From Candidatus Poribacteria bacterium (GTDB lineage: Bacteria; Poribacteria; WGA-4E; B28-G17), in NCBI GenBank assembly GCA_021162805.1, contig JAGGXZ010000182.1, positions 17,009-81,008 of the forward strand: a stretch of DNA of 64,000 nucleotides, read 5' to 3'. The position numbers and the translations under genes were made by a program. Below, piece by piece: positions 2,536 to 25,994 of the stretch (within the stretch, counting starts at the first letter, position 1; each line of letters starts with the position of its first letter). Below the pieces are notes generated by a model. It was not told where the DNA came from. It worked only from the letters and a program-made list of their open reading frames with translations, and ran no database searches.

Positions 2536-2545
2536 TGATAGGCTG

Positions 2546-2887: not shown

Positions 2888-2967
2888 CCTTCACCCCTCC
2901 AAATTGATATCCTTTCCCAAGTTTTCACGGGGGAGGGGCGAAAAATCTTTCGCCCCCAAAATCTTCC

Positions 2968-8347: not shown

Positions 8348-9146
8348 GCCCAAAAAAAGGTTAGGACAGAACTTCCTCAAGGATGAAGGATACCTCGCCC
8401 GTATCATCTCATCGGCGGAGGTGTCGGAGGGCGATCTTGTCTTGGAGATCGGAGCCGGCACAGGTGAGCTGACGCAGTTCCTGATCGATCGGGCCGATCA
8501 GGTGATAGCGATCGAGGTAGATGCGGACCTGATCCCAATCTTGGAAGGGAGGTTCTCATCTTCATCCAAGCTTCATCTCCTTCACGCTGATGCCCTGAAA
8601 CTGGATTGGGTGAACCTGATCCGGGGGATCGATTCCTGTCGCAAAGCTAAGCTCGTATCGAACATACCCTATTACATAACCGCACCTCTTATCGAGAAGG
8701 CGATAGAAAGCAGGTCGGCTTTGAACCTATGTGTCCTGACCGTCCAGAAGGAGGTCGCTCTACGGATATGCGCCTCACCCGGCGGGAGGGAATATGGATC
8801 TTTGAGCATAATGGTTCAGTATCACGCCGACGTGGAGAGGCTTTTCGACATACCGCCTGGAGCCTTCCGGCCGAGCCCCGGCGTCTCATCCAGTGTCATC
8901 AGGATCAGATTTAGGGAGGAACCGAGGGTAAGGGTGAAGGATGAGAAGTTGTTTTTCAAGATCGTCAGGGCGGCCTTTCAGCAGAGACGCAAGATGATCG
9001 TAAACGCACTCAGATCACTCGGACTCGATAGGAAAAGGCTTGAGGAAACGTTAAAGCGAGCCGATATACCTCCAGAGAGCCGACCCGAAATGCTGAGTCT
9101 GGAGGAGTTCGGGAGATTAGCCGATGGGATGGCTGAACGCGTTTAA
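8337..9146 (+). CDS. rsmA: 16S rRNA (adenine1518/1519-N6)-dimethyltransferase
   Basis: PKKRLGQNFL at the N-terminus, the SAM-binding motif LEIGAGTGELT, and ~269 aa. Confidence 0.9.
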   Translation: MKVRPKKRLGQNFLKDEGYLARIISSAEVSEGDLVLEIGAGTGELTQFLIDRADQVIAIEVDADLIPILEGRFSSSSKLHLLHADALKLDWVNLIRGIDSCRKAKLVSNIPYYITAPLIEKAIESRSALNLCVLTVQKEVALRICASPGGREYGSLSIMVQYHADVERLFDIPPGAFRPSPGVSSSVIRIRFREEPRVRVKDEKLFFKIVRAAFQQRRKMIVNALRSLGLDRKRLEETLKRADIPPESRPEMLSLEEFGRLADGMAERV

Positions 9147-10194: not shown

Positions 10195-10214
10195 TCATTT
10201 AGCCTCCAAAGTCA

Positions 10215-10230
10215 TGGCATAGAAATTGCT
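10215..10230 (+). promoter_or_regulatory. Candidate sigma54 (-24/-12) promoter upstream of fliL
   Basis: TGGCAT-AGAAA-TTGCT, with GG at 10216-17 and GC at 10228-29 (12-nt offset), matches the TGGCAC-N5-TTGCW consensus. It lies ~95 nt upstream of the fliL ATG. Confidence 0.4.
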
Positions 10231-10321
10231 TTCTGACCTTAGGCGCTGGGCCTTTAAACGCCATTTCACTATAGGCGGCGGATTGCCGCCGCTGATGTTC
10301 ACGAGTGGGAGGTCTTAATAA

Positions 10322-10828
10322 ATGGCGAAGGAGAAAAGAATAGAAGGGGAAGGGGAAAAAAATGGAGGTTCAGGGATGCTTAAAAACCTCATTCCGTATC
10401 TGGGAACTTTGATCGCTTTAACCGCCATCGCGTATATAATGGTAACCAGATTCATGCCCGCACCGCCCTCCAGTGCCTCAATACAGCGGGGAGCAGTTCA
10501 AAGGAAGGAGGCCGAAACTGAAGAAAACGGGGTGCTTTATGAGTTTGGAGATGTCATCGCCAATCCGGCTCAAACTGAGGGCACCAGATTTCTGAAGGTG
10601 ACCATCTATCTGGAACTGCGCAAAGGGGAATATCAGAAGATCGTGGATAAGTATAAACCAAAACTGCAGGATGTGACCCTACAGATCCTTTCCTCAAAGA
10701 CGGTGGAAGAGCTGGAGGACGTATCCAAGAGGGGAGATCTCCGGAAGGAGATAACCGATGCAATGAACTCAGTGCTCGGAAGGAAAGTTGTGTTGAAGGT
10801 ATTCTTCACCGAATTCGTCATCCAGTGA
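10322..10828 (+). CDS. fliL: Flagellar basal-body-associated protein FliL
   Basis: Short charged N-terminus, a single TM segment (LIPYLGTLIALTAIAYIMV), then RFLKVTIYLEL...LSSKTVEEL...VFFTEFVIQ, which is the FliL consensus. Confidence 0.8.
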   Translation: MAKEKRIEGEGEKNGGSGMLKNLIPYLGTLIALTAIAYIMVTRFMPAPPSSASIQRGAVQRKEAETEENGVLYEFGDVIANPAQTEGTRFLKVTIYLELRKGEYQKIVDKYKPKLQDVTLQILSSKTVEELEDVSKRGDLRKEITDAMNSVLGRKVVLKVFFTEFVIQ

Positions 10829-10843
10829 TCAGAGGTTGAAAGG

Positions 10844-11896
10844 ATGGAGAAGCTTCTCTCTCAGGAGGAGATAGATGCTCTCTTAGATGCTATATCGAAT
10901 AAGAGGATCGATGAGGCGCGTCAACCATCCCAGGATGAGCCGAAATCCGTTAGGCTTTACGATTTCAGCAGGCCGGGCAGGGTTTCAAAGGATTACACCC
11001 GTTCCTTACATATCCTGCACCGCCACTTCGCCAGAATCTACAGCTCTTCCCTCTCATCGCTTCTGAGAACGCTTGTGGAGATAGAGTGCACTCAGGTGGA
11101 GCAATTGACGTACGGCGATTTCCTAATGTCCCTCTCGGAGATGTCCTGTCTGGTTATATTCTCCATGGAGCCGCTTAAAGGGGTAGCGGTGATGGAGATA
11201 GGACCGCAGTTGATCTTCCCCATGGTGGATAGACTGCTGGGAGGATCGGGGATGACATCAGTGGAACCTCATAGGATGACCGAGATCGAAAAATCCATAA
11301 TAGAGCGGGCCATAAAGGCCTCTTTAGAAGCCCTCGGCGAGATATGGAAATTCGTCTCCAAGGATATCAACGTTGAGCTTCAGAGAATAGAAACCGATCC
11401 GCAATACGTTCAGGTTATGGCCTCCAGCGATACGGTTATGTTGATCGTATTCGACGTTAAATTCGGTCAGACGATCGGGATGATGAGCATATGTTATCCC
11501 TTCTCTATGATAGAACCGGCCCTTATCAACGCCCGACCTGAGCAGTGGCTTTTCAACTATCATAGCGGCGGCGATGAGAAATACACGCCTGAGATACGGA
11601 GAAGGGTGGAGAAAGCGGATATAGTCGTCAGGGCCCATTTCCCACCAAGCAGGATAAAGCTTGGAGATCTCCTGAGACTGAAGGTGGGAGATATAATCAA
11701 ACTCGATGTGAGAATCAAAAACGGAAAGCTTCTCGATCCGGTCATACTGGATGTCGGCGGCCAGAAACGGTTCGTCGCCAAACCGGGGAGGGTCGGCAAA
11801 AAGAAGGCGGTCAAAATCATCGGCGTTTTAACTGACGAGGATGAGATAAACTTCCACGGGACCGGGAGTGTGAAAGATGGAGAATCTAAAGCCTGA
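10844..11896 (+). CDS. fliM: Flagellar motor switch protein FliM
   Basis: N-terminal [10 protein letters not shown] (the CheY-P-binding LSQxEIDALL motif), a middle FliM domain and a C-terminal FliN-like segment. About 350 aa. Confidence 0.9.
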
Positions 11897-12290
11897 AGAG
11901 ATAAACAATATGTCGCCGGAGGAGCTTCAGAGCTTAGCGGACTCCTCCCAAGAGGACGTTTTAGGAGAGGAATTTCAGGTGGAAGAGGGAGAGGAGAAGA
12001 TATCGATCCCATATGAGGAGGAGCTCCCGAAGGACAACATAGAGCTGCTGATGGATGTCGAGCTGGATGTCATAATCGAGCTGGGCCGGACCAAGATGCG
12101 GATAGGAGACATATTGAGGCTGGTGCCGGGCGCTATAATCGAACTGGATAAGCTCGCCGGCGAGCCGGTGGATGTTTTGGTCAACAACAAGCCTATCGCT
12201 AAGGGAGAAGTGGTGGTCCTGGACGAAAACTTCGGCGTGAGGATCACCAGCATAATCAATCAGGAGCAGAGACTTAAAAGCCTAGGGTGA
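11877..12290 (+). CDS. fliN: Flagellar motor switch protein FliN
   Basis: C-terminal SpoA/FliN domain ([58 protein letters not shown]). Overlaps the fliM end. Confidence 0.85.
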
Positions 12291-12293
12291 GGG

Positions 12294-12788
12294 ATGAAGA
12301 GGAATTTGTTGAGTTTTGGAGTTCGTTGCGTTATAGCGTTCGTTACGTTCAGCGCAATGGCACAATTCGCCTGGACAGGGCAATCGGGACCTAAGGGTGG
12401 ACTCGATTACGAGAGACCCGATCTCCCAGGCATGCCCGATCTCCTAGGAGCGACACTGCGCGTGGCATTGGGGCTTATCATCGTGGTAGCCCTTCTTATC
12501 GGAGGGTTTTACCTTCTAAAAAGGCTTTCAGGTAGGGTGAGGCTGCAAGAGGAAGACATACCGGTCAAGCTGCTCTGGCAACAGAGCATCGGGCCGAGGC
12601 GATCCATATGCCTGGTCAAAGTTCTCGATAAGGTGCTGGTATTGGGCGTGACGAACACAAACATATCCCATCTGATGACGCTAACGAATGAGGAAGCGAG
12701 CTCACTTGAGATCCGACCGGAGATGGGCGGATCCACCGATCTCATCTCAGCTTTCAAAAAGCTGAGCGGTTTGAGGTTTAAAAGATGA
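12294..12788 (+). CDS. fliO: Flagellar biosynthesis protein FliO
   Basis: Single TM segment (LGLIIVVALLIGGFYLL), then LLWQQSIGPRRSICLVKVLDKVLVLGVT, the FliO pattern (hydrophobic stretch, then rxxl-VxVgxxxLLLGVTxxxI). Positioned between fliN and fliP. Confidence 0.6.
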   Translation: MKRNLLSFGVRCVIAFVTFSAMAQFAWTGQSGPKGGLDYERPDLPGMPDLLGATLRVALGLIIVVALLIGGFYLLKRLSGRVRLQEEDIPVKLLWQQSIGPRRSICLVKVLDKVLVLGVTNTNISHLMTLTNEEASSLEIRPEMGGSTDLISAFKKLSGLRFKR

Positions 12789-13540
12789 GAAGGTGGGTTG
12801 CCATAGCTGTGATCGCCCTGTCTCTGATTCCCTGTCTTTGCCAGGGCCAGCAGATCATACCTCTACCCCGCATCACCGTCGATGTGGGAGCGGCCAATGC
12901 GGAAAACCCACGGCAGCTTTCCACGGCCATACAGATCCTTTTCCTAATAACAGCCCTCTCCCTGGCACCCGCCTTCCTGATTATGATGACATCGTTCACC
13001 AGGATCATAGTAGTGCTTTCGTTTTTAAGACATGGACTTGCGACCCAGCAGTTGCCATCCAATCAGATATTGGCAGGGTTGGCCTTATTCTTAACCGTCT
13101 TCGTGATGATGCCAATATGGAAGGATATAAACGAGAACGCCCTCAAACCCTATCTGGATGGTAAGATAGATCAATCCCAGGCGTTCCATAATGCCATCTC
13201 CCCGCTTAGAAAATTCATGTTCAAACAGACAAGGACAAAGGATCTGGCCTTAATGGTCAAGCTCTCCGGGATGCCGAAACCCAAAAACGAAAATGATGTG
13301 CCCACGTATGTCCTGATACCGGCCTTTGTGATCAGCGAGCTGAAAACGGCGTTCCAAATAGGATTTCTGCTTTTCGTGCCGTTTCTGGTGATAGATATGG
13401 TCGTGGCCTCAATATTGATGGCCATGGGGATGATGATGGTGCCGCCGGTGATAATCTCACTGCCATTTAAAGTCCTGCTTTTCGTGCTCGTGGACGGATG
13501 GAGCCTCGTCGTCGGCTCTCTTGTGGGCAGTTTCAGATAG
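12785..13540 (+). CDS. fliP: Flagellar export-gate protein FliP
   Basis: Signal peptide plus the highly conserved FliP core ([45 protein letters not shown]...[26 protein letters not shown]). Confidence 0.9.
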   Translation: [251 protein letters not shown]

Positions 13541-13549
13541 GGGGAGACT

Positions 13550-13819
13550 ATGGAGCTTGAAAGGACGGTCTATGTATTAAGTGAAGCGATAAAGCTCGTT
13601 TTTCTGCTTTCAGGGCCCGTGCTGTTGGCCTGCCTTGGCGTGGGACTTATAGTGAGTGTCCTTCAGGCGCTCACTCAGATCCAGGAGATCACTCTCAGTT
13701 TTGTGCCCAAGATATTGGCCGCCTTCGTGACGCTGGCGATATTTCTGCCGTGGATGCTGAAGTTGGCTGTCAGTTTTACTACAGCTCTGCTCAGAAACGT
13801 AGACCTGTTCATCAGATAA
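13550..13819 (+). CDS. fliQ: Flagellar export-gate protein FliQ
   Basis: 89 aa with two TM segments. GPVLLACLGVGLIVSVLQALTQIQEITLSFVPKI matches FliQ. Confidence 0.9.
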   Translation: MELERTVYVLSEAIKLVFLLSGPVLLACLGVGLIVSVLQALTQIQEITLSFVPKILAAFVTLAIFLPWMLKLAVSFTTALLRNVDLFIR

Positions 13820-13891
13820 CCTTCGTTCATATTGAGGAACAAGGAGCGAGAAAATAATGACAAGGAGACAAGGTGACAATGGGATAAAGAG

Positions 13892-14662
13892 ATGGGTATA
13901 GATTTAACGGGCATGGAAAGGTTCATATTGGTTCTCTTTAGAGCTGCTGGAGTTGTGACCTTCGTGCCTTTTTGGGGAAGTAGGTTGATACCTGTTAAGG
14001 TCAAGATAGGGCTCTGCTTCGTCCTGGCCGTCGTGTTCTACTCCATATCGGCGGGGGTAAGCTTCTCGCCGACGGAGGATATATTCAAACTGAGCTGGAT
14101 GATACTGAAAGAGACAGCCGTCGGTGCTGTGTTAGGTCTGGCCGGACATGTGGTGTTCTCCGGGGTGGAACTCGCAGGCGAGATGGCGGGGATGCAGATG
14201 GGGCTTAGGATGGCAACAGCTGTGGACCCCCAGTTCGAGACACAATCATCCCTGCTGGCCCAATTCAACGTGCTCTTCGCTCTGATGGTGCTTCTAGCGA
14301 TAAACGGACACTATTGGTTCTTGGAAGGCTTGGCCAGATCGTTCCGACTTATCCCACCTGGAGGAATGGTACTGCGTGAGGTTACCTTCGCTCGGATGAT
14401 GGCCCTCGTGGGGGATTTATTCCTGATAGGCCTGAAGATGAGCGCACCGATAGTTGTAGCTATGCTGATAACGAATGCCGCTTTGGGGTTAATGGTGAGG
14501 GTGGTACCTCAGATGAACATCTTCGTCGTAGGATTTCCCGTCCTGATCGCCGTTGGTCTGATCCTTCTTTTCTTCTCCTTGAAGGCTATCGCCTATCTCC
14601 TGATAAACCTTTTCCTGCAGATGCATAAGGACATAGACTTTCTCATCGGAGAGTTAGGATGA
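13892..14662 (+). CDS. fliR: Flagellar export-gate protein FliR
   Basis: About 256 aa polytopic membrane protein, with FLLVLFRAAGVVTFVPFWG...VLGLAGHVVFSGVELAGEMAGMQMGL typical of FliR. The stop overlaps the next ORF. Confidence 0.85.
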   Translation: MGIDLTGMERFILVLFRAAGVVTFVPFWGSRLIPVKVKIGLCFVLAVVFYSISAGVSFSPTEDIFKLSWMILKETAVGAVLGLAGHVVFSGVELAGEMAGMQMGLRMATAVDPQFETQSSLLAQFNVLFALMVLLAINGHYWFLEGLARSFRLIPPGGMVLREVTFARMMALVGDLFLIGLKMSAPIVVAMLITNAALGLMVRVVPQMNIFVVGFPVLIAVGLILLFFSLKAIAYLLINLFLQMHKDIDFLIGELG

Positions 14663-17217
14663 AGGAGAAGGGTTTAAGCTCGAAGGAGGTCGAAAGGCTA
14701 TCGGCTATCCTGAGAAATGAAGCGGCCAGCACTCGGGAGAGGCTCCTGGCAATCAGAGCCCTCTCGACGATCGACTCGCCGCACGTATTAGCCAATATAT
14801 TGTTGGTTGCCAGCTCACAGAATAAAAGGCTAGCTCAGGAAGGAGCTGAGTTGATAAGGAAGCTCGATCAAGCCTCCCTCTTCAAGCTTCTGGATCATAT
14901 GCTGCTCAATAGGGAGGAGATCGGCTACTTCGGTCAGAAGATGTTTGAGGTTCTCTACAAGCTGAGGGAACAGGATGTGCTCAAATATATAGTGATAAAC
15001 GCCATCAAAAACGGGGAGGAGTGGGGGGAGAAAAGGCGGACCTTAAGCCAGTGGATGAGAAATTTGGGGCTGATAGAAAAATACGTGGATCTTCTAGGCG
15101 AGCTTCCGGTTGAATTGGCCAAATCATTGGGAAAGATCCTCAAGAAGGTTGATGACAGGGTGGTGCTTGATATAGCCCGATCGGCGAAAGGTATAAAGGG
15201 TATAAACAAAGAGAAGAGCGTTAAACTCCTCGATGTCCTTTATGATGTGGCGGATAACGAGGGAATAGCTCCGATATTGGTCAATCTGCTCTCGAGCGAC
15301 GATCAGAGAATAAGATCCAAAACGGCGCTTATACTGGGTAAGCTTTCGGATAACCTCCATTTCTTCCATAACGCCCTTAAAGATCCAGATCCGCGCGTCA
15401 GAGCCAATGCGGTGGAAGGACTATGGGGGCTTGATAACCCAAAGGCGAGGGATATATATCTAGAGGCTCTCGGCGATGAGAACAACCGCGTTAGAGCTAA
15501 TGCGGCCAAAGGACTCTACGAGATGGGTGATCCTAGGGGACTTCAGGTGTTGAAAGAGATGATTGATGATCATGATGGGATGATGCGCGCCAGTTCCGCC
15601 TGGGTGTTGGGCGAGATGGGAGATACCAGTATGATAGGGAAGCTCGAAAGTATGGCTGCCGGAGATCCAGCTGAGATAGCCCGCCGCAATGCCATCAGGG
15701 CGATCGAGAAGATACTCACCAAAAAGGTTGTTCCCACCCTGCGGGATCTCATCCGCTTTATGAACAAGATCGATCCGGATGCGGTTTCAAACCCTCTGAG
15801 GTTTTTCAGAAGAATTGCTGCCCTGAGATCGATAAGATCTGAGATGCTTGTTGAGGTGCTCAGCGCTGCTCCGCCGGTCGATTCCCCGATCGTAAGGCGC
15901 AAGCTGATAGAATCCATAGCCGGCGGTCTTGAGGATATGGCGGATGACGGTTTGCTTCTACTCGCCTTGATGTCGGCGATCCGATTTGACAAGATGTCGT
16001 TCTGGAGCAGGATCATAGAGGGTATCCAGGCGATGATACAGAGGCCGGAGGATAGATTGACGATCCTCAGCGGAGGGGTGGAAACGATGCCGGATATGCT
16101 CCTGGCGACCCTCAAAGAGGGCATGCCCTCAACTGCCGCTCCCATAGCCGAGATCCTAAGATGGGAAGATGAGGCGATAATCGAAAGACTGAAACCTCTG
16201 CTTGATGATTCGAACCCTCTCGTTAGATCGCTGGCAGCGGAGACGATCGGCCTCCTCGGAAGATTTGAAACGCTCGATCGGCTGGAGGAGATGGCTCGAT
16301 CCGATCCTGATCCTTCTGTCAGGGAAAAAGCTCTGAAGGCAATTGAAAGGCTGAAAACAACGGCCGAAATCACCTCTACCCTTCCCGATGAACTGCATAT
16401 GAGGATCCTCCATCTTTCGTTGGAAAACCTTCCGGAGATCTCAATCTCAGTGTCTCTCATGGATGGTAACTCGAACTCTATAGATACCTTGAGGGAAGAG
16501 GAGATCCACCTCTTCGAAAACGGCAGGCCGATAGACTGCAGATTCGAGCGACTTGGAGAGGAAATGCCGGTTTATGTTGTGATACTGATGGACTACAGCT
16601 TGAGCATGTCGGACGAAGATATATACAGGATGGAAGAGGCTGTCTCAGAGTTTATTTCCTCAGTGAAAGGTGAGGATCGAATAGCGATCCTGAAGTTCGC
16701 CTCAGAGATATACGTCCCACAGCCGCTGAACAAGGTGGATCGCCTGCGTCATGACCCTATCAGAGGAGGATTTAAGGGGGACAGAGACGGAACCATGCTA
16801 TATGATGCCTTGGATAGGGCGATCTCTATCCTCAACGAGCTGGAGGGGATAAAGCTGGCCATAGTGCTGACCGACGGGGAGGACAGCGGAAGTACCAAGA
16901 CGGCCAAAGACGTCATCCATAACGCTCTTAAAAACGGGATAAGCATCCACGCCATAGCTCTGGGAGATGAGGTCGACGAGGGAACACTCAGAAACCTGGC
17001 CATATCGACCGGTGGCGCCCTATATGCCACCGGCGATCCCGGTGAGCTTGGAAAGATCTACCGGGAGATCTCATCCTCACTGCAGTCCCATTACAGATTG
17101 AGCTATAGGTCTTGGGCCTGGGATAATGAAGTCCAAAACGCATTTTTAATCATCAGAGCTGATCTCGGCCCGTTAACCCCTGAAGCTTGGACAAAGGTGA
17201 TACTGAGAAATGGCTGA
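14659..17217 (+). CDS. Cytoplasmic HEAT-repeat + von Willebrand factor A (VWA) domain protein embedded in the flagellar export operon. Function unknown.
   Basis: ATG 14659 overlaps the fliR stop (ATGA) and the 3' end overlaps flhB ATG 17210. No signal peptide or TM. HEAT/PBS-lyase-like repeats: DPDPRVRANAVEGL, DENNRVRANAAKGL, DHDGMMRASSAWVLGEMGD, DSNPLVRSLAAETIGLLG, DPDPSVREKALKAIERL. C-terminal VWA with MIDAS residues (LMDYSLSMS...GTMLYDAL...LTDGED). Confidence 0.7.
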   Translation: MKEKGLSSKEVERLSAILRNEAASTRERLLAIRALSTIDSPHVLANILLVASSQNKRLAQEGAELIRKLDQASLFKLLDHMLLNREEIGYFGQKMFEVLYKLREQDVLKYIVINAIKNGEEWGEKRRTLSQWMRNLGLIEKYVDLLGELPVELAKSLGKILKKVDDRVVLDIARSAKGIKGINKEKSVKLLDVLYDVADNEGIAPILVNLLSSDDQRIRSKTALILGKLSDNLHFFHNALKDPDPRVRANAVEGLWGLDNPKARDIYLEALGDENNRVRANAAKGLYEMGDPRGLQVLKEMIDDHDGMMRASSAWVLGEMGDTSMIGKLESMAAGDPAEIARRNAIRAIEKILTKKVVPTLRDLIRFMNKIDPDAVSNPLRFFRRIAALRSIRSEMLVEVLSAAPPVDSPIVRRKLIESIAGGLEDMADDGLLLLALMSAIRFDKMSFWSRIIEGIQAMIQRPEDRLTILSGGVETMPDMLLATLKEGMPSTAAPIAEILRWEDEAIIERLKPLLDDSNPLVRSLAAETIGLLGRFETLDRLEEMARSDPDPSVREKALKAIERLKTTAEITSTLPDELHMRILHLSLENLPEISISVSLMDGNSNSIDTLREEEIHLFENGRPIDCRFERLGEEMPVYVVILMDYSLSMSDEDIYRMEEAVSEFISSVKGEDRIAILKFASEIYVPQPLNKVDRLRHDPIRGGFKGDRDGTMLYDALDRAISILNELEGIKLAIVLTDGEDSGSTKTAKDVIHNALKNGISIHAIALGDEVDEGTLRNLAISTGGALYATGDPGELGKIYREISSSLQSHYRLSYRSWAWDNEVQNAFLIIRADLGPLTPEAWTKVILRNG

Positions 17218-18265
17218 AGATCAGGAGAAAACCGAACAGCCAAGTCAACGAAGACAGGAGAAGGCACGGGAAAAAGGGGAGGTTCCCAGAAGTCGCGAGC
17301 TGAATACGGCTATTGTGCTCCTGATAGGCCTTCTCGCTCTCAGATTCCTCGCGCCGAGAATATCGCTCGGTATCGAGGATACCTTCAGAGCCATGTGGAA
17401 CTCTGAACTCTGGAAGACAGATGGAATTTCGTATGACGTTCTCCCAATGGCGATAGTCAGAATGTTGTGGATCGTGCTGCCGATAATGTTGATCCTGGCC
17501 TGTGTTGGATTCATGGTCGGATTCGCTCAGGTTGGAGGAGTCTTCTCAATCCAGGCGATCACCCCCGATCTAAGCAGGATAAGCCCGGGCAAGGGGGTAT
17601 CGAGGATCTTCTCCAAGATGGGAGCTATGGAGATGGTCAAATCGCTGATAAAGATCAGCGCTATCGGATATATAGGATATACGACCATCAGGGGTCAGAT
17701 GGATAAGCTGCCCTTATTAACATCGGAGAATGCCGCGGGGATCGCCGCATATGCTATGAAGGCGATCTTCGATCTGGGAATGAAGGTCGTCGTGCTGATG
17801 CTGTTCGTGGCGGCGATGGACTACGGATTCCAGAGATGGCAACATATACAGAACCTCAAAATGACCCGTAGAGAGCTAAAGGAGGAGCTGAAGGAGACGG
17901 AGGGCGATCCGATAATCAGATCGATACTCAGGGAAAGAGGAATGGAGATCGCCAGAAGGAGGATGATGCAGGAGGTTCCCAAGGCGGATGTCGTCGTCAC
18001 AAACCCACAGCATATAGCCGTAGCTTTGAAATACGACAAGAAGATCGCCCCCAGCCCTCTCGTCGTGGCCAAAGGAGCGGATCTGCTGGCGCAGAGGATA
18101 AAGGAGATCGCCAGGGAACATAAAGTGCCTATCTTCGAGAATCCACCCCTGGCGAGGGCTCTGTATGAAACGGTCGATATCGGGGAGATGATACCGGAGG
18201 AGCTTTATTTCGCTGTGGCGCAGATACTGGCTCAGGTTTATAGGATGAGAGGTGTTGCGGTATGA
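17210..18265 (+). CDS. flhB: Flagellar export protein FlhB
   Basis: N-terminal EKTEQPSQRRQEKAREKGEVPRSRELN (the FlhB start), four TM segments, and a C-terminal autocleavage region VVVTNPQHIAVALKYD (NPQH in place of the canonical NPTH). Confidence 0.9.
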   Translation: MAEDQEKTEQPSQRRQEKAREKGEVPRSRELNTAIVLLIGLLALRFLAPRISLGIEDTFRAMWNSELWKTDGISYDVLPMAIVRMLWIVLPIMLILACVGFMVGFAQVGGVFSIQAITPDLSRISPGKGVSRIFSKMGAMEMVKSLIKISAIGYIGYTTIRGQMDKLPLLTSENAAGIAAYAMKAIFDLGMKVVVLMLFVAAMDYGFQRWQHIQNLKMTRRELKEELKETEGDPIIRSILRERGMEIARRRMMQEVPKADVVVTNPQHIAVALKYDKKIAPSPLVVAKGADLLAQRIKEIAREHKVPIFENPPLARALYETVDIGEMIPEELYFAVAQILAQVYRMRGVAV

Positions 18266-20370
18266 GATCCGAGGCCCTCGTCCCCACAAATTCAGGCTTC
18301 GTCTCGAGGGTGACAAGGCAAAGCGATATCGCCGTCGCATTAGGTGTGATCGGCATACTTTTCGTTATGCTTGTGCCGATGCCCGCCCTCCTGTTGGATA
18401 TGCTGTTAGCCATGAATATAACCTTCTCGCTCGTCACACTGCTTATCGTCCTTTATGTGACCAAACCCCTGGACTTTTCGGTCTTCCCATCGATGTTGCT
18501 TATAGCGACCCTCTTTAGGCTATCGCTGAACGTGGCCTCTACCAGGAGGATACTGCTCTACGGCGATCAGAGCGAGTTCGCCGCCGGTCATGTGATAAAT
18601 TCGTTCGGTAAGTTCGTCGTGGGGGGGAACTACGTCATCGGCTTCGTGGTCTTCCTGATCCTCGTGATCATACAATTTGTCGTTATAACGAAGGGTGCTG
18701 GCAGGGTAGCGGAGGTCGCCGCGAGGTTTACGCTGGATGCCATGCCGATGAAACAGATGTCCATAGACACCGATCTCAGCGCCGGTTTGATCACGGAGGA
18801 GGAGGCGAGAGCCAGGAGGGAGACGGTGGCGCGAGAGGCGGACTTCTACGGTGCTATGGACGGCGCAAGCAAATTCGTCAGAGGCGACGCCATAGCGGGA
18901 TTGATAATTACCGGGATAAACATCATCGGAGGATTGCTCATCGGCGTGCTTCAGAAGGGGATGCCCATATCGGAGGCCGCCAGGAGATATACGCTTCTCA
19001 CCATAGGCGATGGCCTTGTCAGCCAGGTGCCCGCTCTGATCATATCCACAGCGGCAGGCGTGTTGGTCACGCGGGCTGGAGCGGAGACCGATTTCGGAAA
19101 GAGCCTCACCGGTCAGATACTCTTTCAGCCCAGAGCCCTCGGCATAGCATCGGCTGTGCTTTTCGCTCTCGCACTTGTTCCTGGGCTTCCCAAGATCTCT
19201 TTCTTCATGCTCTCAGGTATCACCGGATCGCTGGCCTATCTGCTTATGCGCACTTCGCCTGCACAGGCGGAGACCGAAGAAGGTGAGGAGAAGAAACCCT
19301 CCCCCGAAAGCGAGGTTGAGGAGGTGGAGCGGATGCTGGATATGGACATCATGGAGCTGAACATAGGCTATAACCTCGTGCCGCTCGTAGATGTGAGGCA
19401 GAACGGAGTTCTGCTTGAGAGGATAAAGATGATAAGACGCAGATGCGCCAGAGAGCTGGGCATCATCGTGCCGCTCATAAGGATAAGGGATGATATGAGC
19501 CTGCCACCTAACGGATATTCGATCATGATCAAGGAGAACGTCGTGGCCAAAGGCGAGGTCATGCTCAATCACTATCTGGCGATGGAGACGGGCAGGGTGA
19601 CGGAGAAGATCGAGGGGATACCTACCACCGAGCCGACCAACAATATACCGGCACTGTGGATACGTGAGAAGGACAAAGAGAGGGCACAGATGGCAGGATA
19701 TATGGTCGTCGATCCGGTGACCGTCATAGCCACTCATCTCATGGAGACGATAAATAAACACGCCCATGAGCTTCTAACCAGACAGGATGTCCGGAGGCTT
19801 TTGGACAGATTAAGTGAGAGATACCCCGCTCTCGTGGATGAGCTGATTCCAAACCTGTTGTCCCTGGGCACGGTGCAGAAGGTGCTTCAGAATCTATTGA
19901 GGGAAGGGGTGCCGATCAGAGATCTGATCACGATCTTGGAGACGCTCTCAGATCACGCCCAGACGACCAAAGACCCTATGCTGCTTACGGAATTCGTCAG
20001 AAGAGCGCTGGGCAGAACGATCTGTAAGGAGCTCGTAGATGAGGACGGCACGCTCAAGGTTTTGACCCTGTCACCGGAGGTGGAGAGGAACATAGCTGAT
20101 GCGATACAGGATAAGGACGGGACGATGTATCTCGCACTCGATCCGGAGGTGGCTCGAAAGATCGTAAACGGGATCGCTACCGCGATAACCGAGATGGGAC
20201 AGCTTCAGGTTCAGCCCGTCATACTATGTGCCGAACCGCTTGTCAGACCTTTTCTGAGGCAACTGGTGGAAAGATTTATCCCCGGACTGGTAGTCCTTTC
20301 CTATGAGGAGATCCCTCCGGAGATGGAGGTAAAGCCGTTGGGCGTTGTAAACATTGAGGGGACGGATTAA
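18262..20370 (+). CDS. flhA: Flagellar export protein FlhA
   Basis: About 700 aa. Conserved TM core (LRLSLNVASTRRILL...FVRGDAIAGLIITGINIIGGLLIGV...DGLVSQVPALIISTAAG) and the FHIPEP domain. Confidence 0.9.
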   Translation: MRSEALVPTNSGFVSRVTRQSDIAVALGVIGILFVMLVPMPALLLDMLLAMNITFSLVTLLIVLYVTKPLDFSVFPSMLLIATLFRLSLNVASTRRILLYGDQSEFAAGHVINSFGKFVVGGNYVIGFVVFLILVIIQFVVITKGAGRVAEVAARFTLDAMPMKQMSIDTDLSAGLITEEEARARRETVAREADFYGAMDGASKFVRGDAIAGLIITGINIIGGLLIGVLQKGMPISEAARRYTLLTIGDGLVSQVPALIISTAAGVLVTRAGAETDFGKSLTGQILFQPRALGIASAVLFALALVPGLPKISFFMLSGITGSLAYLLMRTSPAQAETEEGEEKKPSPESEVEEVERMLDMDIMELNIGYNLVPLVDVRQNGVLLERIKMIRRRCARELGIIVPLIRIRDDMSLPPNGYSIMIKENVVAKGEVMLNHYLAMETGRVTEKIEGIPTTEPTNNIPALWIREKDKERAQMAGYMVVDPVTVIATHLMETINKHAHELLTRQDVRRLLDRLSERYPALVDELIPNLLSLGTVQKVLQNLLREGVPIRDLITILETLSDHAQTTKDPMLLTEFVRRALGRTICKELVDEDGTLKVLTLSPEVERNIADAIQDKDGTMYLALDPEVARKIVNGIATAITEMGQLQVQPVILCAEPLVRPFLRQLVERFIPGLVVLSYEEIPPEMEVKPLGVVNIEGTD

Positions 20371-20432
20371 GCCCGCAAAGGCATGTTTCTTGCTTAACTT
20401 TCACCTCGATACCGTCAGGGGGAGTTCGACAG

Positions 20433-21578
20433 ATGCAGATTAAGAGATATTATGGCAAAAGCGTTCATGCCGCTCTGGAAAAAGCAAAGGCGGAGCTCGG
20501 TCCCGATGCCATACTGCTTCATACCAGGACGCTCAAGTCCAGTATCCTCGGCGGCTCGACTGTTGAGGTGATCGTCGCCGTAGATAGAGAGGCACCCTCA
20601 GAGATAGATGAGGTGATCGGCGACGACGAGGAGAAGAACGAAGAGCCGGTCGAACGAGCAAAGGCTATCCTAACTGCCAATTCCTACAGACGAGCCGAAG
20701 GAGGTTACGAGCTTAAACATATAGGCGAGGAGCTGTCGGAGATAAGGGATCTACTACACATACTCCTGTCAAACGTCAAGAGGGAACAATCACTGGATCT
20801 CCCCGAGACGGTGCAAGGGATCTATGAAAAGTTCATCAAGAGCGAACTTGATCCGGCGATAGCTTATGATCTGGCCAAAGGCCTAGAACCATGTTTTTCA
20901 GATAACGGCAAATTGATAAACGAGAGGTTGGCCGAGCTGATCGGCAAGGCGACGAAGTTCAACGGTGGGATAACGCTGCAAGGTGGGATGAAAAGCGTAG
21001 CGCTTATCGGACCAACAGGTGTGGGCAAGACCACCACTATCGCTAAGCTGGGGGCTTACTTTAAGCTTAAACTCAAAAGGAAGGTGGCCTTTCTGACGAT
21101 CGATACCTATAGGATAGCCGCCGTTCAGCAGCTTCAGATATACGCCGATATAATGAGATCGCCCCTGAAGGTCGCCGATGATCCGGAGGAACTGGTCAGG
21201 GAAGTCGAGTCTCTTTCTGACCACGATCTCATCCTGATAGACACGCCTGGGAGAAGCCATTACGATGCGGCGAGGATAGGCGAGATAGAGAGGTTCATAG
21301 CCGTCTTGCCTCAGGTTGAAGTTTATCTGTTGATCAGTGCTTCCACGAGAAGCAGGGAGATATACGAGATATTAAACGGCTTCGGGAGTGTAGGGGTGGA
21401 CGGCTTGATCTTCACAAAACTGGATGAGGCCTCATGTTTCGGATCGATCGTCAATGCCGCAATACGCTCCGGCAAACCCCTGTCCTACTTTACGACAGGC
21501 CAGGATGTGGCGGGAGATATAGAGGTCGCCACGGTGGAAAGAGTGACATCCCTACTTTTAAGAGGTTTCAGGAGATGA
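20433..21578 (+). CDS. flhF: Flagellar biosynthesis GTPase FlhF (SRP-type)
   Basis: SRP-GTPase motifs VALIGPTGVGKTTTIAKL, DTPGRS and TKLDE. The N-terminus (MQIKRYYGKSVHAALEKAKAELGPDAILL) is FlhF-like. Confidence 0.85.
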   Translation: MQIKRYYGKSVHAALEKAKAELGPDAILLHTRTLKSSILGGSTVEVIVAVDREAPSEIDEVIGDDEEKNEEPVERAKAILTANSYRRAEGGYELKHIGEELSEIRDLLHILLSNVKREQSLDLPETVQGIYEKFIKSELDPAIAYDLAKGLEPCFSDNGKLINERLAELIGKATKFNGGITLQGGMKSVALIGPTGVGKTTTIAKLGAYFKLKLKRKVAFLTIDTYRIAAVQQLQIYADIMRSPLKVADDPEELVREVESLSDHDLILIDTPGRSHYDAARIGEIERFIAVLPQVEVYLLISASTRSREIYEILNGFGSVGVDGLIFTKLDEASCFGSIVNAAIRSGKPLSYFTTGQDVAGDIEVATVERVTSLLLRGFRR

Positions 21579-21580
21579 GC

Positions 21581-22501
21581 ATGAAAGATCAAGCTGCCAA
21601 TCTCAGAAAGCTTTTCTCCAATCCGACACTCGATATTGACATGGAGGAGGAGCCGTTAGTTCGACGGCATAACCCACGATTCCGCACGATAGCCATAACG
21701 AGCGGCAAAGGAGGGGTTGGTAAGACGAACTTCGCCGCTAATTTAGGAGTAGCGCTTTCACAGATAGGAAAGAAGGTGATCATCTTCGACGCCGATCTGG
21801 GGCTGGCGAACGTCGACGTCTTCTTCGACCTCCATCCGAAGTACAACCTCAAACACGTCGTGAGTGGCGAGAAGGAGATAGAGGAGATACTACTGGAAGG
21901 ACCCACCGGTATCAAGGTGGTTCCAGCAAGCTCAGGCGTTGAGATGATGGCTAATCTGCCGGAGAGGGAAAGGAGAAGATTGATCGTAAAACTGGGGGAG
22001 TTGTCGAATATGGCCGATGTGATGATCATCGACACGGCTGCCGGAATATCGCATAATGTGCTGGCCTTTGCCTCGGCGGCGGATATGATCATTATAATGA
22101 CCACCCCCGATCCTGCCGCCATAACGGATGCTTATGCCACGACTAAGGTACTATCCCGAAGGAAAAAGGGGCCGTTTATGCTCATCGTGAACATGGCCGC
22201 CGATGAGAGCCAGGCAAGGGAAGTTGCACTGAGCCTGATCCTGGTGGTGCGGAGATTTCTGGAGTTGGAGCTCAATTATATCGGCTTTATCCCTTTCGAT
22301 CCGTTCGTCTCCAAGGCCCTTAAAGGACAGGTGCCATTGGTGTTGAAATACCCGGGCGCTCCGGCCTCCAGGCACATAATGGCCATTGCCAGCAGGATCT
22401 ATAGCATACTCGGGAGCACGAAACGGACATGTCATATGGATTTCTTCGAGAAGATATCTCTTTCCCTGGAAAGGTCGCTAGGATCGGAGGAGGAAGAATG
22501 A
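21581..22501 (+). CDS. flhG: MinD-like ATPase FlhG (FleN/YlxH)
   Basis: Deviant Walker A (ITSGKGGVGKTNFAANLG), a ParA/MinD fold, and position right after flhF. RBS AGGAG lies 6 nt upstream of ATG 21581, and an alternative ATG at 21575 overlaps the flhF stop. Confidence 0.8.
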   Translation: MKDQAANLRKLFSNPTLDIDMEEEPLVRRHNPRFRTIAITSGKGGVGKTNFAANLGVALSQIGKKVIIFDADLGLANVDVFFDLHPKYNLKHVVSGEKEIEEILLEGPTGIKVVPASSGVEMMANLPERERRRLIVKLGELSNMADVMIIDTAAGISHNVLAFASAADMIIIMTTPDPAAITDAYATTKVLSRRKKGPFMLIVNMAADESQAREVALSLILVVRRFLELELNYIGFIPFDPFVSKALKGQVPLVLKYPGAPASRHIMAIASRIYSILGSTKRTCHMDFFEKISLSLERSLGSEEEE

Positions 22502-23202
22502 ATCAACCAATCCTTAAGCCCGGAATCAAGGTTCAGGTCGAAACGCTATCCGGGGCTCCCAGATGCAGGTTCCTGAGCCGTATAACTCATATCGACGACT
22601 ACTATATCTATATAGCCAAACCCTCTATCTACGATTTCGAGGATGGAGGGCAAACCGGTATACCTCCCAATACACTGCTCAGGGTCTCATTCTCGCTCAG
22701 CGAGGGAGAATTCGCTTTCGATTCGACCGTGAAGGGAAGACAGGCGGATGGATCGTATGTTCTAACCCGACCCCGAAGGTTCTACAGATGGAAAAGACAA
22801 TTTCTGAGAGTTGAAACCTCACTTTGGGTCAGATATGCCGTGATCCCAAGGGTGGAGATGGCCGGCAGGGTGGATCAAGTCAAACGAGCCTATGCCATGA
22901 CGGCCAATATAAGCGGAGGGGGAGTGCTCTTAAAACCTCAGGAAACCCTGCCGGTAGGCGCTATACTAGAGATGGAGATAGAACTCCCCGGAAGATCCGA
23001 TCCTATTCTGGCGATCGGTAGAGTAGTACATACCAAGTCAGGCAATGGTGTGGAGTTCCTCATCATAAACGAGCTCGATAGAAATGAGCTTATAAAATAT
23101 CTATTTGAAGAGGATAGAAGGAGAAGAAGAAGGCTTAGGGAGAAGGGATATGGAGGAGATCTACCCACCGGAATTTATCCCCATTCATCTGGAGATCGTT
23201 AG
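22498..23202 (+). CDS. PilZ-domain protein (putative c-di-GMP-binding flagellar regulator/brake)
   Basis: RBS GGAGGAGG. The start overlaps the flhG stop (ATGA). PilZ motifs RRFYRWKRQ (RxxxR) and NISGGG (D/NxSxGG). About 235 aa. Confidence 0.7.
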   Translation: MNQPILKPGIKVQVETLSGAPRCRFLSRITHIDDYYIYIAKPSIYDFEDGGQTGIPPNTLLRVSFSLSEGEFAFDSTVKGRQADGSYVLTRPRRFYRWKRQFLRVETSLWVRYAVIPRVEMAGRVDQVKRAYAMTANISGGGVLLKPQETLPVGAILEMEIELPGRSDPILAIGRVVHTKSGNGVEFLIINELDRNELIKYLFEEDRRRRRRLREKGYGGDLPTGIYPHSSGDR

Positions 23203-23330
23203 AACGGATGAGCTGCTACCGCTTAAAGCGTTAAACATAATGCTTAACGAGATGCGATCGAAATTAGACATGAAACTGATGAAGGAATTCATAGGATTTC
23301 TCGCCCAGAGCGAGAAGGCCACTCCAATCC

Positions 23331-24137
23331 ATGGAGGGAAAGCAGAGGAGAAAAATGCTGGAGGAACTTTGGGGGGCTTACAAGCTCAACGGCGATAAAA
23401 GGGCGAAGGATGAGATTATCAAACAATGTTTGCCTATGATAAGAGCCATAGCCCAGAGGCTTTCCATATATGCCTCTCCATCTCATGACATCGACGATCT
23501 GGTCAGCGCCGGGATAATAGGTCTCCTGGATGCCATAGAGAAGTTCAACCCTTCTAAAGGCGCTAGCTTTAAAACATACGCCACTTACAGGATCAAAGGT
23601 GCGATCTTGGATGAAGTCAGGGCGTTGGATTGGGTGCCGAGGTCCACGCGGGAGAAAGCTCAAAAGCTGGAAAAGGCCTACTCTGAACTCGAACAGCGCC
23701 TGATGAAACCTCCCTCAGAAGAGGAGGTAGCCGATTACCTGGGGATATCGGTCGAAGAGCTCAGAAAGACGCTGCTTGAGGTCAGCGGTATGGCACTGTT
23801 AACGCTGGAGGATATCGCCCTGGACAAGGAGGAAGAGGGGGCGATCAGGGATTTCATAGCCGATCCGAAAGCGGCGAACCCCGAAGACCAAATGGCCTTC
23901 GAGGAGGCGAAAAGTATATTGGCCGGGGCGATCCAATCCCTGCCTAAACAAGAGAAGATCGTCCTCAGCCTCTATTATTATGAGGAAATGACCATGAAGG
24001 AAATCGGAAAAGTTCTGGGGGTCTCCGAGTCCAGGGTGAGTCAGATACATTCAAGCGCCATCTTGAGGCTGAGGGGGAAGCTCAAGAGATTAAAGGAAGA
24101 TCTGCTTGCTTCTGTCGGGAGAAGAGCCTATGGATGA
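23331..24137 (+). CDS. fliA: Flagellar sigma factor sigma-28 (FliA)
   Basis: Sigma70 region 2 (DDLVSAGIIGLLDAIEKFNPSKGASFKTYATYRIKGAILDEVRALDWVPRS) and region 4 HTH (EEMTMKEIGKVLGVSESRVSQIHSSAILRLR). About 260 aa. Flagellar context. The true start may be the internal M at 23355. Confidence 0.85.
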   Translation: MEGKQRRKMLEELWGAYKLNGDKRAKDEIIKQCLPMIRAIAQRLSIYASPSHDIDDLVSAGIIGLLDAIEKFNPSKGASFKTYATYRIKGAILDEVRALDWVPRSTREKAQKLEKAYSELEQRLMKPPSEEEVADYLGISVEELRKTLLEVSGMALLTLEDIALDKEEEGAIRDFIADPKAANPEDQMAFEEAKSILAGAIQSLPKQEKIVLSLYYYEEMTMKEIGKVLGVSESRVSQIHSSAILRLRGKLKRLKEDLLASVGRRAYG

Positions 24138-25008
24138 AGGGAAGATCGTCAGAGAAAGACAAAGGGAAATCATAGAGGGGGATCTGAGGCTAACCGGATC
24201 GGAGAGGTTCTTCGAGGGTGACCTGATCGTTACCGGTAACGTTCGGGATGGCGTCTCCATATGCGTTAACGGGAGCGTTGAGGTCTATGGGATGGTGGAG
24301 GCAGCGGTAATAAGAGCACATGGCGACATCATCGTCCATGGCGGTTTGCCCGGCAGAGCATATCTCGATTCAGGTGGCAGCGTGATCATCCATTATGCCA
24401 ACAACTCCAGCATCGTCAGCACGGGAAACATCTTCATCAAGACGGGCGCCACACACTGCATGCTCACAGCCGATAATGAGATCTCCCTTGACCCTGAAAG
24501 GGGGTTGCTTTCAGGAGGAAGAGCAAGGGCCGGTAATGCCATCACCGCCGCTACCCTCGGTTCGCTTTACAAAACCGAAACCATTCTGGAAATCGGTATA
24601 ACCCCTATCTTCAGAGCCGAAAGCCAGAGAATCGCCGAGCGGATCGAGTTCCTCAGGGAGGAATTAGACAAGACACGGAAGGTGTTCGACCTGGTCGTCA
24701 ACTCCGATCCGCGATTCCTCTCCAAACGCCAGCTCAAACTGCTCGACCAGATCCCACTCCTCCAGATGAAGCTCTCCTACCTGTCAAAGGAACTGGGCAA
24801 ATACTCCAGGATGTATCAATCGGTCCAAAAGGCCATAGAGGAGGATCTGTCCGGGGGATTTATAAGGGTTTTCAAGAAGGTCTATCCCGGCGTCAAGATC
24901 ACGATCAACTTCACAAGCATGCAGATCACGGATATGCTTGAAGATGTCATATTCGAGGAATCGGGAGGTAGGATAAGATGTCGAAAACCGGATGGCGTTA
25001 TCTCCTGA
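24130..25008 (+). CDS. FapA-like (DUF342) flagellar assembly protein
   Basis: The start overlaps the fliA stop. Repetitive beta-helix-like segments (GDLIVTGNV.DGVSICVNGSVEVYG...GDIIVHGGL) followed by a coiled-coil, as in DUF342/FapA. Confidence 0.55.
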   Translation: MDEGKIVRERQREIIEGDLRLTGSERFFEGDLIVTGNVRDGVSICVNGSVEVYGMVEAAVIRAHGDIIVHGGLPGRAYLDSGGSVIIHYANNSSIVSTGNIFIKTGATHCMLTADNEISLDPERGLLSGGRARAGNAITAATLGSLYKTETILEIGITPIFRAESQRIAERIEFLREELDKTRKVFDLVVNSDPRFLSKRQLKLLDQIPLLQMKLSYLSKELGKYSRMYQSVQKAIEEDLSGGFIRVFKKVYPGVKITINFTSMQITDMLEDVIFEESGGRIRCRKPDGVIS

Positions 25009-25994
25009 ACTTCATCCTCTGTCTATCCCTCATATCCCTGATCTCCGTGAGAGGAGAGGGGGTAGAACTGATGGGTTTGAGATATAGATCCTCGGATAAT
25101 GGGTCCAGGATAACCCTCGATTTAAATGGGATGGCGAAATACGAGATCACTCCGGCGAAAGGGAAAATCCTGATCATCCTTAAAGGGTGTAGATCGGGAA
25201 TAGGATCTATTCCCGATCGCTTTAAGGATAAACTTGTGAGATCGATCGACGTCAAGCCAAGTGGGGAGGATCTATCAATCACGATCGATCTAAGGGAGAA
25301 GGCAAACCTCAGCGCCTTTATGACCCGATCTCCCTATAAGCTCATAGTCGATCTCTATCCGCTTCCCAGGCCTAAACCCAAACTTAAACCCAGCCTGGCT
25401 CCGGCAAAGATCACCGTCAAACGGCCTTCCCCTTCACCTTCGAAAACACCGCTTCAGGCAGCGGCGATGAGGAGGCCGACACATCGGAAATCCACCCCAT
25501 CTCAGCCAAAGCCGAAGGAGAAACCTAAGCCGAAAAAACCCTCACCGTCCGTCACATACCCTCCCCCCGAGGATAAAAGCGATGCCGGCTCCTCCTCGCC
25601 TGATCTCGCGTCGATGTTGAGCAGGGCTGAGAGGGAGAGGACGGGTGATGTCGAAATGCCAAAGGTTGGAATCGGCATCCCACCTCTCCTCGTGGCTCAG
25701 CTTTTCTTCAATCTTATCCTCCTCGCAGCGCTATATCTGCTCTGGAGAAAGATCGATAGATTAGCCTCTGGGATGAAGGATAAAGGCAAACCCTCCGGAG
25801 TTGGGAGCTTCTCTGAGGTTTTAGATGAGATAGTTGATCTGCAGGCCCTGGAGATCACGGAGGATAGGGATGACCCCAAGGTTCGGAAGGTGAAGAGGAT
25901 GTTAAAGGAGGGCCTTTCAGTGGATGAGATCGCCAAAAAGACCGGAATTCCAAAAGGCGAGGTAGAGCTCATATCCAGCCTATCGGGGATCTGA
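24978..25994 (+). CDS. Membrane protein with a periplasmic AMIN domain, Pro/Lys-rich linker, one TM helix, and a C-terminal sigma-region-4-like HTH
   Basis: Signal peptide. AMIN-like beta segment (RITLDLNGMAKYEI...KLIVDLYPL). PKPKxKP low-complexity linker. TM helix LLVAQLFFNLILLAALYLLW. C-terminal KEGLSVDEIAKKTGIPKGEVELI resembles a region-4 / LuxR-type HTH. Confidence 0.45.
   Translation: MSKTGWRYLLNFILCLSLISLISVRGEGVELMGLRYRSSDNGSRITLDLNGMAKYEITPAKGKILIILKGCRSGIGSIPDRFKDKLVRSIDVKPSGEDLSITIDLREKANLSAFMTRSPYKLIVDLYPLPRPKPKLKPSLAPAKITVKRPSPSPSKTPLQAAAMRRPTHRKSTPSQPKPKEKPKPKKPSPSVTYPPPEDKSDAGSSSPDLASMLSRAERERTGDVEMPKVGIGIPPLLVAQLFFNLILLAALYLLWRKIDRLASGMKDKGKPSGVGSFSEVLDEIVDLQALEITEDRDDPKVRKVKRMLKEGLSVDEIAKKTGIPKGEVELISSLSGI

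Follow-up and report, generated by a model that had tools for sequence, protein, structure and literature searches.

The fliPQR-flhBA block, which encodes the flagellar export gate, is among the most conserved gene arrangements of bacteria, and the accessory flagellar proteins known so far are mostly periplasmic or membrane-bound. In a stretch of 64,000 nucleotides from a Candidatus Poribacteria bacterium (GenBank assembly GCA_021162805.1, contig JAGGXZ010000182.1, positions 17,009 to 81,008 of the forward strand; hereafter the window), this block contains an additional open reading frame (ORF), here called X, which lies between fliR and flhB and encodes a protein with HEAT repeats and a VWA domain. 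Several lineage-specific accessory proteins, namely FliO, FlgV, FlhF/FlhG and the YcgR-type PilZ proteins, resemble X in that they are encoded inside flagellar operons and occur in certain lineages only. They act on assembly or motor function, and none of them, unlike X, possesses a HEAT or VWA domain. FlgV has been reported in Poribacteria-type loci, in a study that treats the flagellar loci of Poribacteria only with regard to FlgV (PMC11607428).

No flagellar Pfam or NCBIfam model matched X, for which only HEAT-, Arm- and VWA-type models gave matches; the products of the neighboring genes matched their own flagellar models. In the literature that we searched, no cytoplasmic component of the flagellum is connected with a HEAT or a VWA domain. 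An earlier note on this DNA had stated that no described flagellar protein is known to have this architecture, and neither the model scans nor the searched literature returned one.

Among the proteins closest to X in terms of fold are archaeal ones. ArnB and vWA2 of Sulfolobus acidocaldarius are cytoplasmic proteins in which a VWA domain with an intact MIDAS (metal ion-dependent adhesion site) is embedded in a β-sandwich, and ArnB regulates the expression of the archaellum (PMC6509490, PMC12852372). MIDAS sites bind a glutamate or aspartate of the partner protein via a metal ion (PMC6509490). X is predicted to have the same topology as ArnB/vWA2 (PDB 8S05, 5A8J) and as the bacterial structure 4FX5 from Catenulispora acidiphila, with the VWA domain inserted in a β-sandwich. 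X differs from ArnB in its HEAT solenoid of ~570 residues, at a sequence identity of 14-20%, and it lacks the C-terminal four-helix bundle that carries the phospho-threonine sites of ArnB, as X ends after β-strands. The target of ArnB, the archaellum, bears no relation to the flagellum of bacteria. No gene for an FHA or ZnF (ArnA-type) partner was found in the operon of the window or in the homologous loci.

Repeats of the same type as those of X (HEAT_PBS/HEAT_2) are present in the PBS-lyase-type HEAT proteins CpcE/CpcF and NblB and in the designed alphaRep proteins, the latter being among the Foldseek matches. The likeness to the PBS-lyase proteins is at the level of the repeat only, with X far below the NCBIfam cut-offs (NblB, 53.1 versus 300; CpcF, 39.6 versus 220; CpcE, 27.5 versus 330) and outside any phycobilisome context. 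For the MoxR-associated VWA proteins ViaA, CbbO, NorD and BchD, a paired gene for an AAA+ MoxR-type ATPase is expected. X is without one: no such gene was found in the operon of the window or in the homologous loci examined. The neighbors are flagellar genes throughout, and FlhF (SRP54-type) and FlhG (ParA/MinD-type) are the only nearby P-loop proteins. X is also unlike BatA/BatB, as it has no membrane anchor (NCBIfam BatA, 19.7 versus a cut-off of 380), and it stays below the cut-off of the acidobacterial VWFA model TIGR03436 (58.7 versus 81.25 bits). A component of a defense system was ruled out; PADLOC gave only a local HEAT match (residues 189-365) to a HEAT-ARM profile of 1972 positions, and no partner genes.

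X is a native gene overlapping fliR and flhB

Between fliR and flhB, no long ORF other than X is present (Table 1). Its ATG overlaps the fliR stop codon TGA by 4 nt in the sequence ATGA at 14659, and flhB begins with an ATG at 17210 and shares 8 nt with the 3' end of X (ATGGCTGA). Both overlaps had been pointed out in the earlier note, and the junction sequence agrees with that reading. The overlapping codons suggest that X may be co-translated with the gate genes. The same 4-nt and 8-nt overlaps are present in the relatives L001 and L003, that is, they are kept down to 42% identity, and in the most divergent members L005, L086 and L004 gaps of 7-86 nt take their place. Promoter- or terminator-like sites around X and in the operon showed no excess over the shuffled expectation.

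That X is a real gene under purifying selection is well supported. The dN/dS of X was 0.11 against an ortholog with 88% identity and 0.14 against an ortholog with 68% identity. X is not set apart from its neighbors by its GC content (0.509) or by its GC content at third codon positions (GC3, 0.599), and its codon usage correlates with that of the rest of the operon with r = 0.89 (control genes, 0.85-0.89), which rules out a recent horizontal insertion. The identical protein is found on four public contigs, the longest of 140 kb, where the annotation reads only 'HEAT repeat domain-containing protein [Candidatus Poribacteria bacterium]'. Because independent assemblies from NCBI, JGI, ENA and Logan also show the same arrangement, an assembly or fusion artifact could be ruled out.

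Domain architecture and predicted structure of X

Pfam scans of X gave strong matches to HEAT_2 (PF13646; 2.4e-39, 133.9 bits, cut-off 27.7) and HEAT (PF02985; 2.1e-26, 89.9 bits), with HEAT_EZ also matching, and to VWA (PF00092; 1.3e-15) at residues 640-801. The domain calls of the earlier note, for which it had suggested such a profile search, are borne out in this way, and the five HEAT motifs and the MIDAS motifs DYSLS, DGT and TDGED that it had listed are all found in the translation. The MIDAS of X is intact by its residue pattern, and its metal binding is putative. All complete Poribacteria-type members but P0008, which has DSFVD, show the pattern DSSTD (13 of 14).

The prediction that X has neither a signal peptide nor a transmembrane segment is in line with its hydropathy. 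No segment of transmembrane or signal-peptide grade was found in a 19-residue Kyte-Doolittle scan, in which the maximal mean of X was 1.22 versus 2.7-2.95 in FliR, FlhB and FliO, and the N-terminus of X is charged. A cytoplasmic location of X is well supported, and the sequence is that of a soluble protein of ~95 kDa.

No Pfam model matched X before about residue 200. The N-terminal domain contains the family-specific invariant residues Y110, W132 and D165. The HEAT core (residues 236-370) is the best-conserved part of X, with a mean pairwise identity of 49%, and its motifs RVRANAVEGLW, NNRVRANAAKGLY and RASSAWVLGE are common to X and to the homologs from Bryobacterales that are described below. 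The full-length AlphaFold2 (AF2) model of X has a mean predicted local distance difference test score (pLDDT) of 70 and shows an α-solenoid that is confidently predicted (residues 5-370), then helices of poor definition (376-476) and, at 505-573, the second HEAT block. A Foldseek search with this model retrieved generic HEAT solenoids only (PP2A PR65, karyopherins and alphaRep). The C-terminal 281 residues modeled alone gave a pLDDT of 85 and a predicted template modeling score (pTM) of 0.83. In this model the VWA domain (model residues 67-238) is predicted to be inserted in a β-sandwich with strands at 8-61 and 240-279. The solved structures 8s05, 5a8j and 4fx5 match across both the β-sandwich and the VWA domain, 4fx5 and the archaellum regulator ArnB being the closest solved folds for this module.

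The X family is linked to flagellar loci

A word-indexed search across 5.8 billion proteins returned eight full-length X clusters and one truncated cluster, and all the named ones are from Poribacteria. Beyond these, the profile score fell steeply, from 1159 to 484 to 249 bits, down to generic HEAT proteins. An exhaustive HMMER pass over 1.84 billion representatives at 50% identity added P0118, P0119, P0120, P0121, P0130, P0139 and some fragments, beyond which the matches were confined to generic VWA proteins and giant arrays of HEAT repeats; members scored 680-1410 bits, and these non-members at most 513 bits. Since both searches fall off to generic HEAT and VWA proteins after few members, the full architecture of X is rare. 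X fits a proposed new family of ~840-930 aa, characterized by an N-terminal domain with Y110/W132/D165, the HEAT core, the second HEAT block and the β-sandwich with a MIDAS-bearing VWA domain, and encoded inside a flagellar cluster. That X belongs to an undescribed protein family is well supported.

The fliR-X-flhB junction is found in eight sequence groups, with the identity of X going down to ~30%. In L092 (L092:5540-8341), two tandem full-length copies of X (876 and 933 aa) lie between fliR and flhB, and L088/L089 carry three copies (L088:1-2430, 2455-3504), one of which, of 349 aa, consists of the N-terminal and HEAT-core half only. A rough neighbor-joining tree groups {P0121, L088-Xa} and {P0119, L092-X2, L088-Xb}, which indicates that the duplication of X is older than the split of the L092 and L088 lineages. 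A paralogous branch (P0007, P0118) is located directly 3' of motB on two independent contigs. The L004 and L093 types are perhaps from one genome, as they come from the same sample and have similar coverage.

About ten diverged lineages have X within a flagellar locus. Flagellar clusters make up 12 of the 13 contexts seen for the Poribacteria-type clade, and they do so in two different positions. The contig of P0130 is only 3.4 kb long, which is too short to judge its context. P0139 (723 aa, probably truncated, on a long-read contig) is found at L175:7511-12172 after a response-regulator gene and an HD/HD_5 gene, in a non-flagellar region. The earlier note had named homologs without linkage to the flagellum as the finding that would speak against its proposal. 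The homologs are linked to the flagellum in related genomes, in eight groups at fliR/flhB and in two after motB, so that this objection fails.

As a control, we scanned a metagenome collection with a FliR profile and examined the 80 closest fliR loci. X is carried only by two Poribacteria-type loci (FliR 91% and 51% identical), and no X-like match was found in the other 78 loci (non-Poribacteria, FliR at most 38% identical). An flhB was detectable in 63 of the non-Poribacteria loci, and in every one of them it directly follows fliR, which is the arrangement that the earlier note had taken as normal; fused forms of the two genes, which it had also mentioned, exist as the FliR/FlhB fusion family NF009411 of NCBIfam. 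As X is absent from the 78 control loci and fliR and flhB are adjacent there, the insertion of X is specific to the Poribacteria-type clade. The outgroup HEAT protein P0010 (Blastocatellia) has a non-flagellar neighborhood.

Homologs of X in Bryobacterales

A genome scan gave at least ~75 loci of Bryobacterales (Acidobacteriota; L009-L085) that encode 'HEAT' proteins of ~590 aa (for example L031:9767-11521 and L010:9698-11512). The view that these matches reflect mere HEAT-repeat similarity was overturned by a profile-profile alignment (hhalign) with X, which revealed homology over the full architecture (E 7.5e-51, 512 columns). These proteins are thus true homologs of X, a relationship that is newly recognized here. 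They share with X the HEAT core, aligned to about residues 87-355 of X, and a β-sandwich with a VWA-like C-terminal module, aligned to residues 590-852. Motifs beyond the generic repeat, namely RSK..I.G, RVRANAVE.LW, NNRV..NA..GLY..GD and RA.AAWV.GE, are common to both groups. In contrast to X, the Bryobacterales proteins lack the region of X residues ~356-575, the MIDAS is completely gone in 55 of 55 sequences, and no Pfam VWA match is obtained. The HEAT-core residues R219, K221, R248, N250, W256, R277, N281, Y287, R310 and A314 are near-invariant among 17 sequences of the X clade and 55 of Bryobacterales. Because this holds for both clades, the HEAT core is the surface of greatest age and constraint within the superfamily.

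The neighbors of the Bryobacterales genes are mostly housekeeping genes, with aconitase in 22 of 74 loci, along with TonB, PepA, RecX and RelA, and the clustering of neighbors across the 74 loci gave no functional theme. L031 and L070 (L070:~9800-11569), which pair in the tree, lie directly after motA-motB inside a flagellar cluster of the order fliA-flgK-flgL-fliM-...-motA-motB-HEAT-flagellin, a placement that recalls the post-motB branch among the X proteins. In L061 a flagellin gene is close by, and L020 contains two tandem copies of the Bryobacterales HEAT protein.

Possible functions of X

The flagellar linkage of the X family is well supported and amounts to strong guilt-by-association for a flagellar role. 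In all probability X serves the flagellum as an accessory part or a regulator that has not been described so far, and it does so in Poribacteria-type bacteria only. The reading that we favor, with a probability of roughly 0.5, is that X is a clade-specific two-site scaffold at the cytoplasmic face of the basal body. X would be produced along with the early proteins of the basal body and of export. It would hold a first partner with its HEAT core (about residues 215-330) and clamp an acidic residue of a second with the Mg2+-loaded MIDAS of its VWA domain, which is embedded in the β-sandwich. Both the docking of X on the flagellar machine and the binding at two sites are steps that we infer. Candidate partners are the gate, via FlhB-C or FlhA-C, the C-ring, or MotA through its cytoplasmic loop. 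The adaptor of the export gate or the C-ring put forward in the earlier note may be kept as a proposal. The post-motB paralogs, the post-motB genes of Bryobacterales and the REC, HD and PilZ neighbors suggest that a role at the stator or motor face, or a regulatory one, fits at least as well as a role at the gate.

Several points weigh against the scaffold. The family is small (~10-14 clusters), all its members are from uncultured organisms, and most of the contigs are short. Its most divergent branch, P0139 (L175), is located outside flagellar clusters. P0008 (L005/L008:8001-10550) is found at the junction despite a degenerate MIDAS (DYSDF, and V in place of T712), with short gaps instead of overlaps. 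As ~70 of the 74 Bryobacterales homologs lie among housekeeping genes, the architecture is not intrinsically flagellar. Finally, the conserved position may be inherited inertia from a single insertion; because the order of flagellar operons is strongly conserved (fliR and flhB adjacent in 63/63 loci), positional conservation alone is weak evidence.

Two further readings keep X at the flagellum, and we regard both as tentative. In the first, X and its paralogs would be structural subunits of an unseen cytoplasmic element of the motor, such as a cage or HEAT-solenoid spokes linking export gate, C-ring and stator to one another via MIDAS-metal contacts, and the HEAT core would be a motor-binding module common to Poribacteria and flagellated Acidobacteriota. 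This is conceivable but unlikely. In the second, which we consider a minor possibility, X would be a regulatory switch like the archaeal ArnB, in which signal-dependent partner binding, through phosphorylation or second messengers, gates flagellar assembly, export or the engagement of the stator. However, the likeness to ArnB is at the level of the fold class, where ITIH1 and 4fx5 score equally well, and the C-terminal helix bundle with the phosphorylation sites is missing in X. Neither an FHA/ZnF partner nor a kinase gene is present in any locus seen, and the REC and HD neighbors occur in two loci only.

It appears improbable that X is a mere passenger, whose product would act in the cytoplasm but not for the flagellum and whose gene was inserted once in a permissive intergenic junction of a very stable operon and has been inherited since. 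Such an origin would agree with the housekeeping neighbors of most Bryobacterales homologs (aconitase, TonB, PepA, RecX, RelA), with P0139 lying outside flagellar clusters and with the general conservation of flagellar operon order (63/63). It is at odds with the second independent flagellar position after motB, which is occupied in two Poribacteria-type contigs and in a subclade of Bryobacterales, with the retention of tandem paralogs inside the operon and with the maintenance of tight start/stop overlaps. In addition, every named MIDAS-bearing member in the search of 5.8 billion proteins is Poribacteria-type, with 12 of 13 contexts flagellar.

The exact placement of X between fliR and flhB, with coding overlaps on both sides and the position kept in eight sequence groups, would also be expected of a transient chaperone of gate assembly, which acts while FlhB joins FliPQR and then leaves, by the same logic as FliO for FliP. 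We find this quite improbable, as the steps of gate assembly take place within the membrane and X lacks any membrane segment, the post-motB paralogs and the post-motB homologs of Bryobacterales do not fit, and the control fliR loci indicate that other phyla do without such a factor. An extracellular VWA adhesin exported by the flagellar type III secretion system can practically be dismissed: although the described motility-associated VWA proteins of bacteria are mostly extracellular adhesins (PilY1, CglB, Bd0875) and X is encoded beside the export gate, HEAT solenoids are cytoplasmic scaffolds, the N-terminus of X is predicted to be a folded helix from about residue 8 (pLDDT ~88) and not a disordered export signal, and Pfam detects no terminal domains of the rod, hook or filament type.

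Features of the locus

Table 1 Positions of X, its domains and neighboring genes in the window, and homologous loci of Poribacteria-type lineages
Feature	Location	Strand	Remarks
X, HEAT-solenoid + β-sandwich/VWA(MIDAS) protein, 852 aa	14659..17217	+	ATG start; stop 17215-17217
X residues 1-235, helical N-terminal domain, runs into the solenoid	14659..15363	+	AF2 pLDDT 80-90; alignments
X residues 236-370, HEAT core	15364..15768	+	Pfam HEAT_2 best stretch 237-317
X residues 371-500, variable helical region	15769..16158	+	24% identity, low model confidence; absent from Bryobacterales homologs
X residues 501-575, second HEAT block (DSNPLVRSLAAETIG, DPDPSVREKALKAIERL)	16159..16383	+	Pfam HEAT/HEAT_EZ 501-565; pLDDT 85-90
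X residues 576-637, N-terminal strands of the predicted β-sandwich embracing the VWA domain	16384..16569	+	C-terminal model pLDDT 85, pTM 0.83
X residues 638-810, VWA domain with MIDAS	16570..17088	+	
MIDAS residues D645-x-S647-x-S649; T712; D742	16591-16605; 16792-16794; 16882-16884	+	
X residues 811-852, C-terminal strands completing the predicted β-sandwich	17089..17214	+	
fliR, 256 aa	13892..14662	+	PF01311 1.9e-64; TIGR01400 193 bits, above cut-off
flhB, 351 aa	17210..18265	+	PF01312 6e-125; TIGR00328 above cut-off
Operon fliL-fliM-fliN-fliO-fliP-fliQ-fliR-X-flhB-flhA-flhF-flhG-PilZ(YcgR-like)-fliA-fapA-DUF2802/AMIN	10322..25994	+	Pfam scans
fliR-X-flhB	L006/L095		X 88% identical
fliR-X-flhB	L001/L002		X 68% identical
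fliR-X-flhB	L003		X 42% identical
Junction-type	L007/L096		X 44% identical; contig ends inside or after X
fliR-X-flhB	L005/L008		X 30% identical; Poribacteria metagenome-assembled genome Dive96_bin1.70
Junction-type	L086		X cut by contig end
fliR-X-flhB	L090/L091		Tara Oceans
fliR-X-flhB	L092/L093		
Junction-type	L088/L089		flhB seen downstream; upstream side cut
flgD-flgE-motA-motB-X'-REC	L004; X' = L004:5708-8230		CheY-like receiver gene at 8308-8634
motB-X'	L176; X' = L176:1144-3672		

The flagellar operon is preceded by the housekeeping genes yicC, gmk, coaBC and ksgA. Between gmk and coaBC, the window carries a toxin-antitoxin-like pair of a nucleotidyltransferase (153 aa) and a HEPN protein (151 aa) at 5910-6810 (+), where the relative L001 has rpoZ. 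A 356-aa ORF at 9124-10194 (+), between ksgA and fliL and overlapping the end of ksgA, gave no Pfam or PADLOC match. A 346-aa counterpart lies at the same place in L001/L002, and the ORF could be a further unrecognized gene of the flagellar operon.

The listed flhG ORF (ParA/MinD-type) at 21434-22501 (+) overlaps flhF by 145 nt, and its true start is probably near 21587, since the homologs align only from about residue 52. The tail of the operon (22429-25994, +) encodes a YcgR-like protein with PilZN and PilZ domains, FliA, FapA and a DUF2802/AMIN protein with one transmembrane segment. In L001, an HD_5 (HD-GYP-like) gene is additionally present between the PilZ gene and fliA. In L092, this position is taken by an 89-aa ORF (L092:14811-15080) with two transmembrane helices, an arginine within the membrane and an acidic tail, which fits the description of FlgV (PMC11607428); no equivalent ORF is present in the 128-nt gap between the PilZ gene and fliA of the window. 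Farther downstream, a giant ORF of 3658 aa at 31051-42027 (+) contains fn3, bacterial Ig-like, macroglobulin-like and C-terminal FlgD_ig domains. It has the look of a surface protein and no relation to the flagellar operon.

Significance

What is new here is an undescribed accessory gene family in an otherwise known flagellar export-gate operon. Throughout a candidate phylum, purifying selection maintains the gene of a soluble 95-kDa protein in the middle of the export-gate block, at times as two or three copies. Both the conservation and the architecture of X are unusual. Its putative function is read from context only, every carrier seen is uncultured, and no long-standing question is made directly testable. 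From the homology to the Bryobacterales proteins, of which two members are encoded after motAB, comes a conserved motif of the HEAT core that can be put to the test and perhaps a way to a model that can be cultured. Should X dock on the basal body, it would represent a new kind of cytoplasmic flagellar component, in which a HEAT solenoid is combined with a MIDAS-bearing VWA domain.

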